Source: an uncultured Gammaproteobacteria bacterium (GTDB taxonomy: Bacteria > Patescibacteriota > Microgenomatia > Levybacterales > GWA1-39-11). From it: a stretch of DNA of 64,000 nt. Shown here piece after piece: positions 58,508 to 64,000 of the stretch. Location: NCBI GenBank assembly GCA_964504535.1, contig CAZDED010000003.1, forward strand, positions 6,850 to 70,849. Direction: 5' to 3'. The notes beneath the pieces were generated by a model. The model was not told where the DNA came from and searched no databases. It was given only the letters and a program-made list of their open reading frames with translations. A program made the translations under genes and the position numbers. Each line of letters starts with the position of its first letter. Within the stretch, counting starts at the first letter, position 1.

Positions 58508-58586
58508 CCCCATCAACCGCTTCAACTGTATCAACCTCATCCTTAGCCCATCACAGTCCAATTTTGCTAATTTCCCCCCCACTCAC

Positions 58587-58605
58587 TTAGGGGTCCGACC
58601 CCTAA
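58587..58605. repeat. REP-like palindrome TTAGGGGTCCGACCCCTAA, copy 1
   Basis: Imperfect palindrome: the GGGG..CCCC arms pair around TCCGA, or the 7-bp arms AGGGGTC and GACCCCT pair around a central C. Confidence 0.6.
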
Positions 58606-58639
58606 GCATATATTTTTCATTTTTCAGCCACATTTTAAG

Positions 58640-58658
58640 TTAGGGGTCCGACCCCTAA
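58640..58658. repeat. REP-like palindrome TTAGGGGTCCGACCCCTAA, copy 2
   Basis: Identical to copy 1 and 53 nt downstream of it. It lies 16 nt upstream of the transposase start. Confidence 0.6.
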
Positions 58659-58673
58659 ATGGTATAGTGAATT

Positions 58674-59321
58674 ATGCCATCAAAATACGTTGTTCGAAAT
58701 TACACTGAAGGGGGCATCTACCATATATTTAATCGTGGAGTGGAAAAGAGGAAGATATTCATGTCTAGTCAAGACTATAGAATATTCATGTATTACATTT
58801 TTGTTTATACTGCGCCACTGCCAAAAGTATTAACTTCATATCCGAACCATCCTTTTCGACTTCAGCAAAAAAATTTATCAAATGAAGTAGAAATTCTCGC
58901 TTATTGTCTAATGCCAAACCATTTCCACTTTCTCTTAAAGCAAAACACAAAAGACGGTATTACTAAATTCATGAAGCAGATGACAAATGCTTACACTGAA
59001 TATTTTAACAAGAAGTATAAACGTGAAGGAGGGCTAATGCAGGGGAAATATAAAGCAGCAGAAGTTGAATCAGACAAAATACTATTACATATATCACGAT
59101 ACATCCATTTAAACCCGGTTGTCGCTGGACTTTGTGAGAAGGTAAACGATTACCCTTGGTCATCAATTAACGAATTTGTTGAAAATAAAGAAATCTTATG
59201 TCATATAAAATCAGTTCTAGAACAGTTTTCGTCATCAAAAAAATATGAGTCATTTGTTCTAGATCATTTGGATTATGCACGTGAGCTTGAAAACATAAAA
59301 CATGTATTAATGGATGAATAG
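58674..59321 (+). CDS. Y1/HUH tyrosine transposase, REP-associated (RAYT) / IS200-like TnpA family
   Basis: YHIFNRGVEKRKIF (N-terminal motif), HUH motif NHFHFLL, the catalytic-Tyr region SRYIHLNPVVAGL, and YPWSS. 215 aa. Confidence 0.75.
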   Translation: MPSKYVVRNYTEGGIYHIFNRGVEKRKIFMSSQDYRIFMYYIFVYTAPLPKVLTSYPNHPFRLQQKNLSNEVEILAYCLMPNHFHFLLKQNTKDGITKFMKQMTNAYTEYFNKKYKREGGLMQGKYKAAEVESDKILLHISRYIHLNPVVAGLCEKVNDYPWSSINEFVENKEILCHIKSVLEQFSSSKKYESFVLDHLDYARELENIKHVLMDE

Positions 59322-59336
59322 GGGTCCGACCCCTAT
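59318..59336. repeat. REP-like palindrome ATAGGGGTCCGACCCCTAT, copy 3, overlapping the transposase stop codon
   Basis: Same GGGGTCCGACCCC core in the same orientation as copies 1 and 2. Confidence 0.6.
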
Positions 59337-59511
59337 AAGACGAGGAGAAACATCCAAGTAAGGTCAAAAACAACCCATCTTTTATTGCCTTATTGCTTCA
59401 AATCTGATACAATATTTTATATTCTTATTATCTTTTGAATTCATTTTGAAACTAAAAACACTTCCCACCTTGCAACATCCAAATCGTTTCTATACAATAG
59501 TTTTTTGTTGA

Positions 59512-61467
<1,956 letters not shown>

Positions 61468-61559
61468 TTAGTAGTTATTAGTCCTCAGTCCTCAGTTTTG
61501 AAACTACAAACTAAGGACTACCAGACTATTAAACTGACAAAGGGGGTGACAATTAATAT

Positions 61560-62069
61560 ATGAAATTAACATACGGAAAAAATAGTCCTTCGGAAGTCAA
61601 TGTTCTCATTGAAATTCCAAAGGGTACAAACGTTAAATATGAGTTTGATAAAGAGATGGAGATCATGGTCGTAGACCGTTTTTCCAAAACGTCCATGAAC
61701 TATCCATTAAATTATGGTTTTGTTCCTGCTACCCTGTCAGGAGACGGAGACCCTGTTGATGTTCTTGTCCTTTCAGAAAAAGCAATTGCACTTGGAACTG
61801 TTATAGCAGTCAAGCCAATTGGAATGCTTGAAATGGAAGATGAAAGTGGAGTAGATGCTAAAGTTCTTGCAGTGCCTGCTGTAACCGGAGACATGTATTC
61901 TTCTTACAATGACATTACAGACGTATCGGATGATCTCAAGGCTCAAATCAAACACTTCTTTGAACATTACAAAGATTTGGATAAGGGAAAATGGGTAAAA
62001 TTGAAAGATTGGTTGGGTCGCGATGCGGCACTAAAGGAAATTACTAATGGCATTAATAATGCAAAGTAA
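61560..62069 (+). CDS. ppa: Inorganic pyrophosphatase (family I)
   Basis: 169 aa with YPLNYGFVPATLSGDGDPVDVLVL, typical of family I inorganic pyrophosphatases. Confidence 0.9.
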   Translation: MKLTYGKNSPSEVNVLIEIPKGTNVKYEFDKEMEIMVVDRFSKTSMNYPLNYGFVPATLSGDGDPVDVLVLSEKAIALGTVIAVKPIGMLEMEDESGVDAKVLAVPAVTGDMYSSYNDITDVSDDLKAQIKHFFEHYKDLDKGKWVKLKDWLGRDAALKEITNGINNAK

Positions 62070-62122
62070 AAAGTAAATTGAAATTTTTTGCTTTTTTATT
62101 TTTGCTTTTTTAAATTAATATT

Positions 62123-64000
62123 ATGGAAATTGGAAAATTAGAACATATTGATATTTCTACAGAGGCTAAAAAGGCCTATCTGGATTATGCGATGAGCGTA
62201 ATTGTCAGCCGTGCGCTTCCAGACATCAAAGATGGTCTAAAACCAGTTCATAGACGCGTTCTTTTTGCGATGTCTGAGATGAATCTTACGCCTCAAGCAA
62301 AATACGCAAAGTCGGCAAAGATTGTTGGAGAAACCATGGGTAAATACCACCCACATGGAGACATGGCAATCTATGATTCTCTTGTCCGCCTTGCCCAAGA
62401 CTTTTCAATGCGTTACCCACTTGTTGATGGCCAAGGTAATTTTGGATCCATGGACGGGGATTCGGCCGCTGCGATGAGGTACACAGAGGCAAAGCTGACG
62501 CCTTTGGCTATGGAGATGCTTTTTGATATTGATAAAGAGACCGTTGCATTTGGAGACAACTTCGACGGGACAATGAAAGAACCTCTCTATCTTCCCTCAA
62601 AGTTGCCTAACTTGTTACTTATGGGTAGTGAGGGAATTGCTGTTGGTATGGCAACAAAAATCCCACCACATAATTTAGGAGAGGTTATTGATGCTGTAGT
62701 TCACACCATTGACAAGACTACCTATGACACAAAGAAAGACAATGTCGTCAAAAACGCTCAAGAAAGTGATACAGACAAAGAAAAGGAAAAGCAGCAAGCA
62801 CTCGCTGAGACACTAGAATCAAAGCTCTCAAGACTTTCATCAAATGTTGAAATTGATGAACTATTGGAATTCATAAAAGGACCGGATTTCCCAACAGGGG
62901 GAGCTATATTTGACATAGCTGAAATCAGAAATGTTTATAGAACCGGACGGGGAAGGATATTGATCCGAGGAATTGCAAATATTGAAGATATTGGACAAGG
63001 AAAGAGTGCGATTATTATTACAGAATTGCCATATCAGGTAAATAAGGCGGCCCTTGTTGCAAAAATTGCAGAACTGGCAAAACTCAAAAGACTTGAGGGA
63101 ATAACAGATCTTCGGGACGAGTCAGACAGAAGTGGTATTCGTGTGGTTGTTGAGTTAAAACGTGACACCACCCCAAAGAGAGTCTTAAATAATCTATTTA
63201 AACTAACCGCTTTACAAACTTCATTCCCAGCAAACTGTGTCGCGCTTGTTGATGGAATTCCAAAAACAGTAAATCTTAAGATCATGCTTGATGAGTACAT
63301 CAAACACCGTTTCTCAGTTATAACAAAAAGATCAGAGTTTGAACTAGCCCAAGCAAAGGCTCGCATCCACATTTTAGATGGACTTATCATCGCAGTTAAT
63401 AATATTGATGAGGTCGTTGATATCATCAAAAAATCCAAAAATACTGAAGATGCACGTGAGAAATTGATGGCACGATTCAAGCTCTCGGAAATCCAGGCAA
63501 ATGCCATCTTGGACATGCAACTTCGTCGTCTCTCAGCACTTGAAGTTGAGAAATTAGAGGCAGAGTGGAAAGAGATAAAGGCACTTATTGACTACCTTGA
63601 AGGGCTCCTTGCAGATCCACTCAAACTCCTAAAAGTTGTCAGGGATGAATTGGTCGCTATCAAAGAAAAGTATCAGGACGCGAGAAGAACTAAAGTCTAC
63701 AAATCCAAAGTTGATGAATTCTCAGAAGAGGATCTTATTCAAAATGAGCAGACAGTTATTACTATTACCGAAACGGGCTACATAAAGCGTCAGTCGGTCA
63801 CGTCATTCAAGACTCAAGCACGTGGCGGAAAAGGGGTAATGGGCATGAAGACAAAGGATGAAGACAATATAGAACATATTCTATTTTCTGAAACCCATGA
63901 TCACATTTTGTTCTTCACAAATCTTGGCAAGGTTTACGCAACTCGGGTATTTGAGATTGCAGAAGGATCAAGAATAGCAAAGGGGCAAGCTATAGTTAAC
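62123..64000 (+). CDS. gyrA: DNA gyrase subunit A, partial (3' end beyond the window)
   Basis: N-terminal [24 protein letters not shown], active-site [10 protein letters not shown], and a GyrA-box-like QARGGKG near the window end. Confidence 0.9.

Follow-up and report, generated by a model that had tools for sequence, protein, structure and literature searches.

Three palindromes bracket a Y1-HUH gene between pilC and gyrB

The window analysed here is a 64-kb stretch of DNA in which gene calls place a class 2, RAYT/TIRYT-like Y1-HUH gene (58674..59321, + strand, ATG start, 215 amino acids) directly between pilC (T2SSF) upstream and gyrB downstream, so that the first-pass annotation was right in locating the element between a pilus locus and gyrB. 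The gene encodes an HUH motif, H83-F84-H85 in NHFHFLL (codons 58920..58928, + strand), which aligns to HMH of E. coli TnpA_REP, and a putative catalytic tyrosine, Y143, in RYIHLNP (codon 59100..59102, + strand), which has the class-2 Y motif Y---NP. The gene has no tnpB partner, and no known RNA or tRNA was found in the 64-kb window.

Three copies of a palindrome surround the gene, all on the + strand. Copy 1, the distal upstream hairpin, is TTAGGGGTCCGACCCCTAA at 58587..58605, 84 nt before the ATG; copy 2, the proximal upstream hairpin, has the same sequence at 58640..58658, 31 nt before the ATG and at the position of a -35 element; and copy 3, ATAGGGGTCCGACCCCTAT, lies at 59318..59336, where the TAG stop codon of the gene (59319-59321) forms its 5′ foot. 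These coordinates agree with the earlier description of two identical 19-bp palindromes upstream and a third over the stop, in the same orientation. The 13-mer GGGGTCCGACCCC occurs exactly three times in the window, and a search of both strands of the 64 kb with up to two mismatches returned the same three sites only (0.25 expected), a count reached in 0 of 100 shuffles. Written for either central base the palindrome is TAGGGGTC[CG]GACCCCTA, and in all three window copies the central base on the + strand is C. Copies are mostly direct and not inverted, and their feet are TTAG, TTAG and ATAG; the canonical GT[AG]G foot is absent from the window palindromes, with GTAG occurring only in some other genomes. 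Copies 1 and 2, separated by a 34-nt spacer, can pair with each other as a REPIN-like dimer when folded as single-stranded DNA (58587..58658; z = -4.5 to -5.0). With its T-rich tail, copy 1 also resembles a terminator for pilC (terminator-like site 58586-58606); copies 2 and 3 lack a T-run.

Directly beside the proximal hairpin is an extended -10 promoter box, TGGTATAGT (58660..58668, + strand), that follows the pattern TGnTAnAnT kept in the orthologues. A generic promoter scan did not report this box because it demands a -35 hexamer. The mRNA of the Y1 gene is probably leaderless, since the -10 box lies only 5 nt from the ATG and a Shine-Dalgarno sequence is lacking. Among 67 non-redundant upstream regions of homologues, a TATAAT profile stands at -12 to -7 from the ATG and a Shine-Dalgarno-like motif is present in only three. 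The placement of the proximal hairpin against an extended -10 box just upstream of the ATG suggests, in addition to a leaderless mRNA, possible autoregulation of the gene.

The protein is closer to TnpA_REP than to IS200 transposases

The first-pass annotation had identified a Y1-HUH protein with RAYT affinity from the motifs YHIFNRG, NHFHFLL (H83, H85), RYIHLNPVVAGL (Y143) and YPWSS, all of which are present in the protein, and profile and fold comparisons bear out both assignments. The Pfam Y1_Tnp profile (PF01797, TnpA_Y1) matches at 47.9 bits against a cut-off of 23 (E = 1.7e-12). The NCBIfam equivalog REP_Tyr_transpos (NF047646) scores 70.3 bits, under its cut-off of 80, and transpos_IS200 scores 15.1 bits against a cut-off of 55. 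Separately, the family profile is matched by ~2,200 protein clusters (50% identity) at E ≤ 1e-30. In an AlphaFold model of the 215-residue protein (pLDDT 91.6), Y143 lies on a helix spanning residues 134-150 and the last 50 C-terminal residues are helical. Foldseek ranks 4er8, the complex of E. coli TnpA_REP with a REP hairpin, first among PDB matches to this model (E = 7e-8); the TnpA proteins of IS608 and ISDra2 come after it, from ~2e-4 (2vjv, 2xma and 2a6m, ~2-5e-4, probability 1.00). Sequence-only PDB searches were weak for TnpA_REP and ISDra2 alike, so the fold search was needed to rank the two. Residues H83 and H85, as well as R142, Y143, H145, N147 and P148, are invariant in an alignment of 42 homologues. 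From sequence and model together, the protein is thus predicted to be an enzyme with the Y1-HUH fold that is nearer to the RAYT protein TnpA_REP than to IS200 transposases. E. coli TnpA_REP reads GTAG through a set of residues of which a Gln alone is kept here, and no helix-turn-helix domain (Bac_DnaA_C, HTH_23 or HTH_28-like) was matched by Pfam at the C terminus at E ≤ 1.

The cassette is retained at one site through deep divergence

Y1 proteins of 100, 86, 83, 66 and 63% identity are all encoded directly after pilC. In the 100, 86 and 63% loci gyrB follows directly, a single additional gene separates Y1 from gyrB in the 83% locus, and the 66% contig ends just past Y1. Comparison of these genes gives a dN/dS of 0.08-0.10 (about 0.09) with dS from 0.6 to about 2.8 substitutions per synonymous site. 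The hairpins are kept with the gene: in all orthologues the distal one lies at -84 to -88 (L065, L069, L070 and L161), the proximal one at -31 to -33 and the third on the stop codon. In the orthologue alignment the proximal palindrome is a conserved island within a diverged spacer, and the layout with the stop codon inside a hairpin recurs in L065, L069, L070, L073, L151, L152 and L161. All three hairpins changed jointly to GGGGTT[C/G]AACCCC (C:G to T:A) in L070 and L161. The first palindrome has the complementary central base in L065, L070 and L161, so that their two upstream copies form a perfect inverted pair; a rule tying the central base to the 5′ TAG foot as a marker of orientation fits L065, fails in L155 and was dropped. 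The gene with its three hairpins has stayed at the same pilC-gyrB site through deep divergence and under purifying selection.

The sister lineages L157, L158 and L160 have empty pilC-gyrB sites with neither gene nor palindrome. Because these sites lack both, gene and hairpins are gained or lost as one unit, which is mobile on long time scales only. The exact borders of the unit were not placed when occupied and empty sites were compared, because the pilC-gyrB spacers are too diverged for insertion junctions to be located. Each homologue locus has one copy of the Y1 gene, and every protein sequence looked up has a single genomic context, even those found on up to 22 contigs. The first-pass annotation had proposed that IS200-type ends and an absence of other palindrome copies would make the element an ordinary insertion sequence; what is found is one site kept over the whole span of dS from 0.6 to 2.8, and in the data seen the cassette is not an active insertion sequence.

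The hairpins co-evolve with the gene

Of 80 homologue loci (31-83% identity), nearly all have a lineage-specific hairpin before the start codon that matches one after the stop codon, with the upstream hairpin ~15-45 nt before the ATG in most of them. Hairpin orientation is inverted in about one third of homologues. In 56 distinct hairpins, 9 of 11 base pairs changed on both sides, and on three of five measures (cells paired, cells changed on both sides and covariation score) none of 500 shuffles reached the observed value. The pair that flanks the single central base is CG in 33 hairpins and TA in 23, with no mismatches. Taken as hairpins, structures that covary up to a single central base would leave a loop of 1 nt; a symmetric duplex bound by a dimer fits equally. 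Other branches of the family have hairpins with asymmetric loops of 5-7 nt, such as CAAGG-ACTCC-CCTTG. Many relatives also carry in-frame copies of their own palindrome within the coding sequence, with insertion hot spots at about residues 55-80 and 160-166, and the window gene has no internal copy. The joint changes in the orthologues, the matching hairpins of the homologue loci and their covariation support the palindromes as cognate, co-evolving partners of the Y1 protein lineage.

Low-copy dispersal of the palindrome in other genomes

No further true copies of the palindrome were found in ~69 kb of the source genome. A candidate fourth copy beyond the end of the window, at L061:12496, is folD coding sequence for PGGVGP and no repeat, and GGGGTCGGACCCC can arise in this way within coding sequence. 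In a scan of GTDB genomes, among which the source genome apparently was not included, the exact 17-mer was found in 60 stretches clustered in particular genomes, only five of them close to a Y1 gene. Half of the copies (33 of 66) have at least three extra complementary base pairs beyond the 17-mer, where ~1 such copy is expected, and these extensions are genome-specific. The 17-mer core occurs at low copy number in other Patescibacteria and in some other bacteria, with seven copies in WFTF01. Copies scattered far from Y1 genes and sharing a genome-specific extended consensus indicate copying. In the homologue loci the density is low, with 14 distant palindrome matches in 656 kb, part of them by chance. 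The palindromes also flag where coding sequences and terminators have acquired repeats.

Two other explanations for the distribution were considered and rejected. Carriage by phage is contradicted by just two distant matches among 2.9 million viral contigs. A DNA-uptake sequence tied to the type IV pilus genes would need far more copies, and homologues occur in unrelated contexts (ftsEX-prfA, tRNA genes and giant-protein genes).

Relationship to known Y1-HUH systems

Class-2 Y1-HUH proteins are distinguished by the Y motif Y---NP from IS200 proteins, which have Y---Q (PMC6006769). The motifs NHFH, L-M-Q-G, YIHLNP and PWSS of the window protein match, by motif comparison only, those of TnpA_Y1 subclass 2.1 (PMC6006769), which corresponds to TIRYT/TIRtron (PMC3733652) and to RAYT Group 1 (PMC5581495): the HuH motif of that subclass is NH[YF]H, its Y motif Y[IV]HLNP and its tail SS, and its W motif, W[EQ] or of 'FQ' type, is MQ here and FQ, VQ or LQ in relatives. 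Low copy number per genome and patchy taxonomic distribution are shared as well. The repeats around the window gene lie at fixed distances from it. TIRYT repeats, also at fixed distances, carry GGGGWSAS, to which GGGGTCCG fits at seven of eight positions, although the repeats here are whole palindromes and not arms of an inverted repeat; GGGGTCAG variants adjoin GGGGTCCG in L003, L011 and L015, and GGGGTTGA variants agree less well with the consensus. Some TIRYT repeats overlap gene ends and some are self-complementary; copy numbers of their families range from low to moderate. The cassette differs from this group in several respects. The protein has 215 residues against a subclass median of 238 and has no detected distal HTH or DnaA_C-like domain, whereas C-terminal HTH-like domains have been reported for subclass 2.1 proteins (PMC6006769). 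Each flanking repeat is a whole palindrome of 13-19 bp and not an arm of a long terminal inverted repeat, two of the three copies form an upstream dimer and the third lies on the stop codon, and the host, judged from named homologues, is of a Patescibacteria-type lineage not covered by those surveys. Subclass 2.1 genes were described as having no REP-like structure nearby (Quentin et al, 2018, PMC6006769).

E. coli TnpA_REP of the REPtron (RAYT Group 2, subclass 2.2; PDB 4er8) is the best solved structural relative. It shares with the window protein the class-2 Y---NP motif and a single-copy, vertically inherited gene flanked by cognate, co-evolving palindromes. In contrast to the E. coli system, the cassette lacks the GT[AG]G guide tetranucleotide, and the majority of the GTAG-reading residues are not retained; the palindrome is a perfect stem of 6-9 bp, unlike E. 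coli REPs with their bulges and larger loops; and dispersed copies by the hundred are not seen, with none in ~69 kb of the source genome. Additional helices are present in the protein model between residues 47 and 66, its C terminus is extended by ~50 helical residues, and the NCBIfam equivalog score of 70.3 is below the cut-off of 80. The TnpA proteins of IS200, IS608 and ISDra2 (subclass 1.1) share the HUH-Y1 fold and subterminal-type hairpins on either side of a small gene in a unit of ~0.7 kb, but the cassette has no Y---Q motif, no multi-copy gene and no tnpB, has long been resident at one site, and reaches just 15 bits with the NCBIfam IS200 profile. Members of subclass 2.4, from Cyanobacteria and Bacteroidetes, have REPs in frame in tnpA, as relatives of the window gene have in-frame palindromes; however, the window gene itself has no internal palindrome, the hot spots in its relatives (~55-80 and 160-166) are not 'generally between HuH and Y', and the Y motif is YIHLNP instead of YIxNNP.

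The first-pass annotation called the arrangement a classic RAYT-plus-REP system. The RAYT-like Y1-HUH gene, its co-evolving palindromes, single-copy state in the loci covered, vertical inheritance and purifying selection are consistent with that name. On the other side stand short, perfect and mostly direct palindromes without a GT[AG]G foot, no dispersed copy in ~69 kb, an NCBIfam RAYT score below 80, and HuH, W, Y and SS motifs that fit subclass 2.1, described with GGGGWSAS inverted repeats and not with REPs. The cassette is not a classic REP system; it is a further branch of a known kind of element and no novel kind. Class-2 Y1-HUH proteins, both RAYTs and TIRYTs, are common, and the large subclass 2.1 has been described as lacking REP-like partners. 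The branch analysed here is abundant in Patescibacteria and very compact, its partner palindrome being merged with the promoter and the stop codon of the gene. In the literature searched, no paper connects RAYTs with Patescibacteria.

Possible functions of the cassette

Our preferred reading, to which we give a probability of about 0.65, is that the locus is a Y1-HUH cassette of the RAYT/TIRYT kind, resident and of a domesticated type, in which a single-copy gene is bracketed by three copies of the palindrome that its product recognises. If it works like E. coli TnpA_REP and IS608 TnpA, the enzyme would be a tyrosine single-stranded DNA endonuclease and strand-transferase and would bind the palindrome once this has extruded from single-stranded DNA as a hairpin. 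Its Y143 would cut and rejoin the strand beside the hairpin through a 5′-phosphotyrosine link, and this cutting and rejoining would maintain the flanking copies and now and then seed new ones. Because the proximal hairpin takes the place of a -35 element in the extended -10, presumably leaderless promoter, binding there probably governs expression of the gene itself. The distal hairpin would terminate pilC transcription and the hairpin overlapping the stop codon would cap the 3′ end of the mRNA.

A more speculative elaboration, which we consider unlikely as a whole, is that the cassette is a self-contained, self-regulating module widespread in Patescibacteria, in which the GT-Y-N-R-AC core at the tip of the palindrome would serve at once as operator at the -35 position of the leaderless promoter, as stop codon and 3′-end cap, and as a low-copy mobile palindrome. 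Hairpins and terminators already in place would then receive the palindrome from the enzyme at their tips, as would coding sequences in frame, including the gene of the enzyme itself. If so, reduced genomes would have put a class-2 Y1 protein to a functionally distinct, host-integrated use, and the module would not be a REP amplifier.

Other explanations have to be weighed against the resident cassette. It is conceivable, at rather long odds, that the palindromes act as ordinary regulatory sites in duplex DNA, comprising a promoter operator together with terminators and bound symmetrically by a dimer, with the Y1 protein having a host function unrelated to palindrome copying. The binder could tentatively be the Y1 protein itself, through its helical C-terminal part, or another factor. 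Perfect two-fold symmetry up to one central base, with a strictly covarying innermost pair, is what such sites would have; the proximal copy at -35 of a conserved extended -10 promoter, the terminator-like copy 1, the absence of dispersed copies from the window and the HTH-like domains reported for subclass 2.1 also accord with it. Yet Pfam finds no HTH in the 215-residue protein, the 17-mer is scattered far from Y1 genes elsewhere with a genome-specific extended consensus, and complementarity runs on into variable flanks (33 of 66 copies against ~1 expected), which a sequence-specific duplex binder would not need. Nor would duplex sites be expected to have the asymmetric 5-7 nt loops of other branches or to lie in frame within the genes of relatives.

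Quite improbable is an autonomous IS200-like insertion sequence of ~750 bp, quiescent here, whose same-strand hairpins would be the subterminal ends used in single-strand peel-and-paste transposition. Hairpins that tightly bracket the gene, mostly in one orientation as at IS200/IS605 ends, the Y1_Tnp fold, and the variation among sister lineages, which have either the whole unit or a clean empty site, all have a place in this account. They are outweighed by the retention of one site over Y1 identities from 100 to 63%, with dS near or beyond saturation, by the single context of each protein sequence even on up to 22 contigs, and by the one gene copy per homologue locus. The Y---NP motif of class 2 where Y---Q would be expected, the transpos_IS200 score of 15 bits against 55, the missing tnpB, the inverted hairpins of about one third of homologues and the near absence from viral contigs argue against it as well.

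Least credible by far is a chance or compositional origin of the palindromes, or plain intrinsic terminators unrelated to the gene, a reading that draws on the terminator pattern of copy 1 and on the occurrence of GGGGTCGGACCCC in folD and is already refuted by the comparative data, given the 0 of 100 shuffles, the orthologues that keep positions and change copies in concert, the pairing of start and stop hairpins across ~80 homologue loci and the lack of a T-run at copies 2 and 3.

The short perfect palindrome and the small 215-residue protein make a handy test system for binding as hairpin or duplex, for cleavage and for autoregulation. In the annotation of reduced genomes, such Y1 genes should not be tallied as active IS200 transposases.

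The Y1 gene and its palindromes

The three palindromes and the open reading frame described in the first-pass annotation were confirmed in the sequence. Palindrome copies 1 and 2, both TTAGGGGTCCGACCCCTAA, occupy positions 58587-58605 and 58640-58658, upstream of a 215-amino-acid open reading frame (Y1) that runs from an ATG at 58674 to a TAG at 59319-59321. Copy 3, ATAGGGGTCCGACCCCTAT, occupies 59318-59336, with the TAG stop codon of Y1 forming its 5' foot. When up to two mismatches are allowed on both strands, the 13-mer GGGGTCCGACCCC is found at only three sites in the 64 kb (0.25 expected), a count met by 0 of 100 dinucleotide shuffles. As a single strand, each copy folds into a stem of 8-9 bp closed by a tiny loop, and copies 1 and 2 are able to pair with each other over their 34-nt spacer (z ~ -4.5 to -5).

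All the protein motifs named in the first-pass annotation were also found. The protein scores 47.9 bits against Pfam Y1_Tnp (cut-off 23), 70.3 bits against NCBIfam REP_Tyr_transpos, which is under the cut-off of 80, and just 15.1 bits against NCBIfam transpos_IS200 (cut-off 55). In a 42-sequence alignment the invariant residues are H83 and H85 of the HUH motif, R142, Y143, H145, N147, P148, W162, and S164. The AlphaFold model calculated from this alignment is confident (pLDDT 91.6, pTM 0.87), and the closest solved structure is E. coli TnpA_REP with a REP hairpin (4er8, E = 7e-8), followed by the TnpA proteins of IS608 and ISDra2 at about 2-5e-4. Pfam detects no C-terminal HTH domain in the protein. 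The Y1 family is large, with a profile from the alignment matching 2,239 representatives of 50%-identity clusters at E <= 1e-30 and 20,540 at the looser E <= 1e-10, and is nearly absent among viral contigs.

The palindromes as partners of the gene

The Y1 gene and the palindromes are cognate partners. Their positions are kept in every orthologue, at -84 to -88 and -31 to -33 from the ATG and at the stop codon, and in the orthologues with 66 and 63% protein identity all three copies are jointly altered to GGGGTT[C/G]AACCCC, a compensatory shift from C:G to T:A. Homologues with 53-57% identity, located in housekeeping contexts unrelated to this one, carry GGGGTT[G/T/A]AACCCC ahead of the start, repeated with TAG as the stop. 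Nearly all of eighty metagenomic loci encoding homologues with 31-83% identity possess a lineage-specific hairpin about 15-45 nt 5' of the ATG (for example, TGAGCAAGGACTCCCCTTGCTCA, AGCTTCGCAAGGTCTCTCCTTGCGAAGCT, and CTATCGAGGTTCAACCTCGATAG), with a matching hairpin that recurs at or just past the stop.

Covariation was assessed with 56 distinct hairpins whose common tip is GT-Y-N-R-AC. Paired cells make up 89.9%, and changes on both sides are seen in 9 of 11 pairs. None of 500 shuffles reached the observed pairing share, the count of cells with changes on both sides, or the covariation score; the count of pairs with double changes was reached by 46 of 500. Three of the 11 pairs were imposed by the filter used to select the hairpins. 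The innermost pair, which was not imposed, is strictly complementary (CG 33, TA 23, 0 mismatches) and leaves one central base, so that the loop would be too small for an ordinary hairpin. From sequence alone, a single-strand hairpin and a two-fold symmetric duplex site are inseparable.

Many distant homologues have their own flanking palindrome repeated, complete and in frame, within the Y1 coding sequence (loci L086, L088, L089, L092, L102, L105, L106, L109, L111, L113, L115, L116, L120, L126, L127, and L143). The two hot spots lie near residues 54-63 and near 147-169, with some genes using both; the Y1 gene in the window has no internal copy. A separate Y1 subfamily from Bdellovibrionales and Patescibacteria MAGs, with the Y motif AYVNGN, contains an in-frame TAGGGGTCCGACCCCTA at codon 63-81 (L017:3091, L029:3555, L032:413, and L036:1906), where it encodes [VL]GVRPL in L017, L029, and L032 and GRGRTPT in L036. 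The flanking hairpins of L029 differ, with the variant GTAGCGGTCCGACCGCTAC.

Inheritance at the pilC-gyrB site

Y1 has been held at one site while synonymous divergence neared saturation. Four contigs, each from a different sample, encode the identical protein, in every case after pilC and, in the three that extend beyond Y1, before gyrB. Proteins with 86, 83, 66, and 63% identity are each encoded directly 3' of pilC. Next comes gyrB in the 86% and 63% loci; an additional His_Phos_1 gene separates Y1 from gyrB in the 83% locus (L069), and the contig of the 66% locus stops just past Y1. Among these orthologues dN/dS is 0.08-0.10 for Y1 (dS 0.6-2.8) and 0.01-0.04 for its neighbours pilB, pilC, and gyrB, so Y1 evolves faster than they do, yet clearly under purifying selection. 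For every protein sequence looked up there is just one genomic context, even for those on 19-22 contigs, which is unlike the behaviour of an active insertion sequence.

In lineages with PilC 84, 79, and 68% identical, pilC is followed directly by gyrB, and the 110-188 nt spacers of these empty sites (L157:5203-5343, L158:5200-5389, and L160:5203-5314, from sister lineages) contain neither a Y1 gene nor a palindrome. Because the empty sites lack both, gene and hairpins are gained or lost jointly as a unit. Horizontal gain followed by loss has been described for class 2 Y1 genes, and the patchy distribution of the gene-plus-hairpin unit across sister lineages agrees with this description. In L159 the same spacer holds an unrelated gene (314 aa) in the opposite orientation, and gain and loss of genes recur at this spacer.

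Nucleotide identity between the window and L065, the 86% locus, is ~84% over pilB, pilC, and most of Y1, and leaps to 96-100% at about 59260-62570, a tract that begins near the 3' end of Y1 and copy 3 and extends through gyrB and ppa. Correspondingly, dS is 0.22 for gyrB and 1.2-1.3 for pilB and pilC. The tract looks like recent recombination, with its left edge within about 60 nt of copy 3.

Putative promoter and terminator context

When the pilC-Y1 spacers of four orthologues are aligned, only the two palindromes, a short CCACAT.TTA block, and a TGnTAnAnT box just 5' of the ATG are conserved. In the window this box is TGGTATAGT (58660-58668), 5 nt from the ATG. Across 67 non-redundant homologue upstream regions a TATAAT profile spans -12 to -7 relative to the ATG, and just 3 of these regions have a Shine-Dalgarno-like motif. 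From this pattern we infer an extended -10 promoter that would produce a leaderless mRNA. Copy 2 sits at -35, a placement that would lend itself to autoregulation. Copy 1 and its T-rich tail agree with a terminator pattern for pilC, and copies 2 and 3 are without a T-run.

Dispersed copies

No further true copy of the palindrome was found in the window or the 5 kb beyond it (L061, a source-genome stretch running past the window end). The only other hit, GGGGTCGGACCCC at L061:12496, about 7.6 kb past Y1 and outside the window, is folD coding sequence for PGGVGP, and the core can thus arise in coding sequence independent of a repeat family. A scan for TAGGGGTCCGACCCCTA in one genome per species returned 60 stretches, clustered in particular genomes. 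The carriers are Patescibacteria (Saccharibacteria, Kaiserbacteria, Curtissbacteria, Paceibacteria, and an unclassified MAG that carries seven copies), together with a few MAGs of Bdellovibrionales, Haliangiales, and Gammaproteobacteria. Of the 60 stretches, fetched at lengths of at most 8 kb, only 5 contain a Y1 homologue. Complementarity continues for at least 3 bp past the 17-mer in 33 of 66 copies, with about 1 expected, and these stem extensions are genome-specific (AATT..AATT, ATCT..AGAT, GG..CC), which implies copying within genomes. Palindrome density is low: the homologue loci have 14 distant matches in 656 kb, some of them by chance. This density fits better with the TIRtron repeat families, described as 'moderately abundant' (Di Nocera et al, 2013; PMC3733652), than with the hundreds of REPs in E. 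coli or Pseudomonas.

At L016:2336 and L042:2534 the 17-mer core tips perfect palindromes with 11-12 bp more per arm and a T-run behind them. They resemble intrinsic terminators whose loop is the core, an arrangement that may reflect insertion into the loops of hairpins already present. In one Saccharibacteria MAG (L024, L033, and L055) and one gammaproteobacterial MAG (L022, L049, and L059), the palindrome forms the end of a longer repeat, about 40 nt in length, that the loci have in common. Stop-free frames surround the palindrome for about 950 codons in L024 and L055 and about 300 codons in L033.

Comparison with known systems

The cassette is a RAYT-like, domesticated-type Y1-HUH gene with cognate palindromes. 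The closest described kind is the TIRYT/TIRtron, corresponding to subclass 2.1 and Group 1 (Bertels et al, 2017; PMC5581495). In the motif-based classification of TnpA_Y1 proteins (Quentin et al, 2018; PMC6006769, Table 1), subclass 2.1 is equivalent to Group 1 and to most TIRYTs described by Di Nocera et al. The protein has NHFH, a W motif of the MQ/FQ type, YIHLNP, and an 'SS' tail, which agree with subclass 2.1 and disagree with the Y---Q of IS200, and by this comparison the cassette appears best placed with the TIRYT/subclass 2.1 group. TIRYT genes are RAYT-like and flanked at fixed distances by repeats sharing GGGGWSAS (PMC3733652; PMC6006769); the repeats are low in copy number, some overlap gene ends, and some are self-complementary (PMC3733652). 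In the window, GGGGTCCG agrees with GGGGWSAS at 7 of 8 positions, and GGGGTCAG variants adjoin it in three loci. Unlike in TIRYTs, every repeat here forms a short palindrome in full, the copies number three, two of them in an upstream dimer, the protein is smaller (215 aa; subclass 2.1 median 238 aa) with no HTH domain detected, and the host belongs to a Patescibacteria-type lineage. The palindrome string had no match, and no paper linked RAYT or TnpA_REP with Patescibacteria, in the literature searched.

The first-pass annotation had proposed a classic RAYT-plus-REP arrangement. Its superfamily assignment and general idea hold, but the cassette is not a classic GTAG-REP system of the E. coli REPtron type: the palindromes have no GTAG foot and a low copy number in the stretches covered, the GTAG-reading residues are mostly unconserved in the protein, and the NCBIfam score is sub-threshold. 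Nor is it an ordinary IS200, from which it departs in the Y motif, the copy number, and the profile score.

By homology and anatomy, the enzyme of this RAYT-like cassette would bind the palindrome as a hairpin, the catalytic tyrosine would cleave and then rejoin single-stranded DNA, and the promoter-proximal palindrome could confer autoregulation on Y1. A self-regulating module, in which a single core would function as the operator, as the stop and 3' cap, and also as a mobile palindrome of low copy number, seems to us unlikely.

Elsewhere in the window, an unbroken reading frame of at least 8,055 codons on the minus strand (3-24167) runs past the window start and is probably a giant protein gene; its GC content is 43.7%, compared with 39.3% in the rest of the window.
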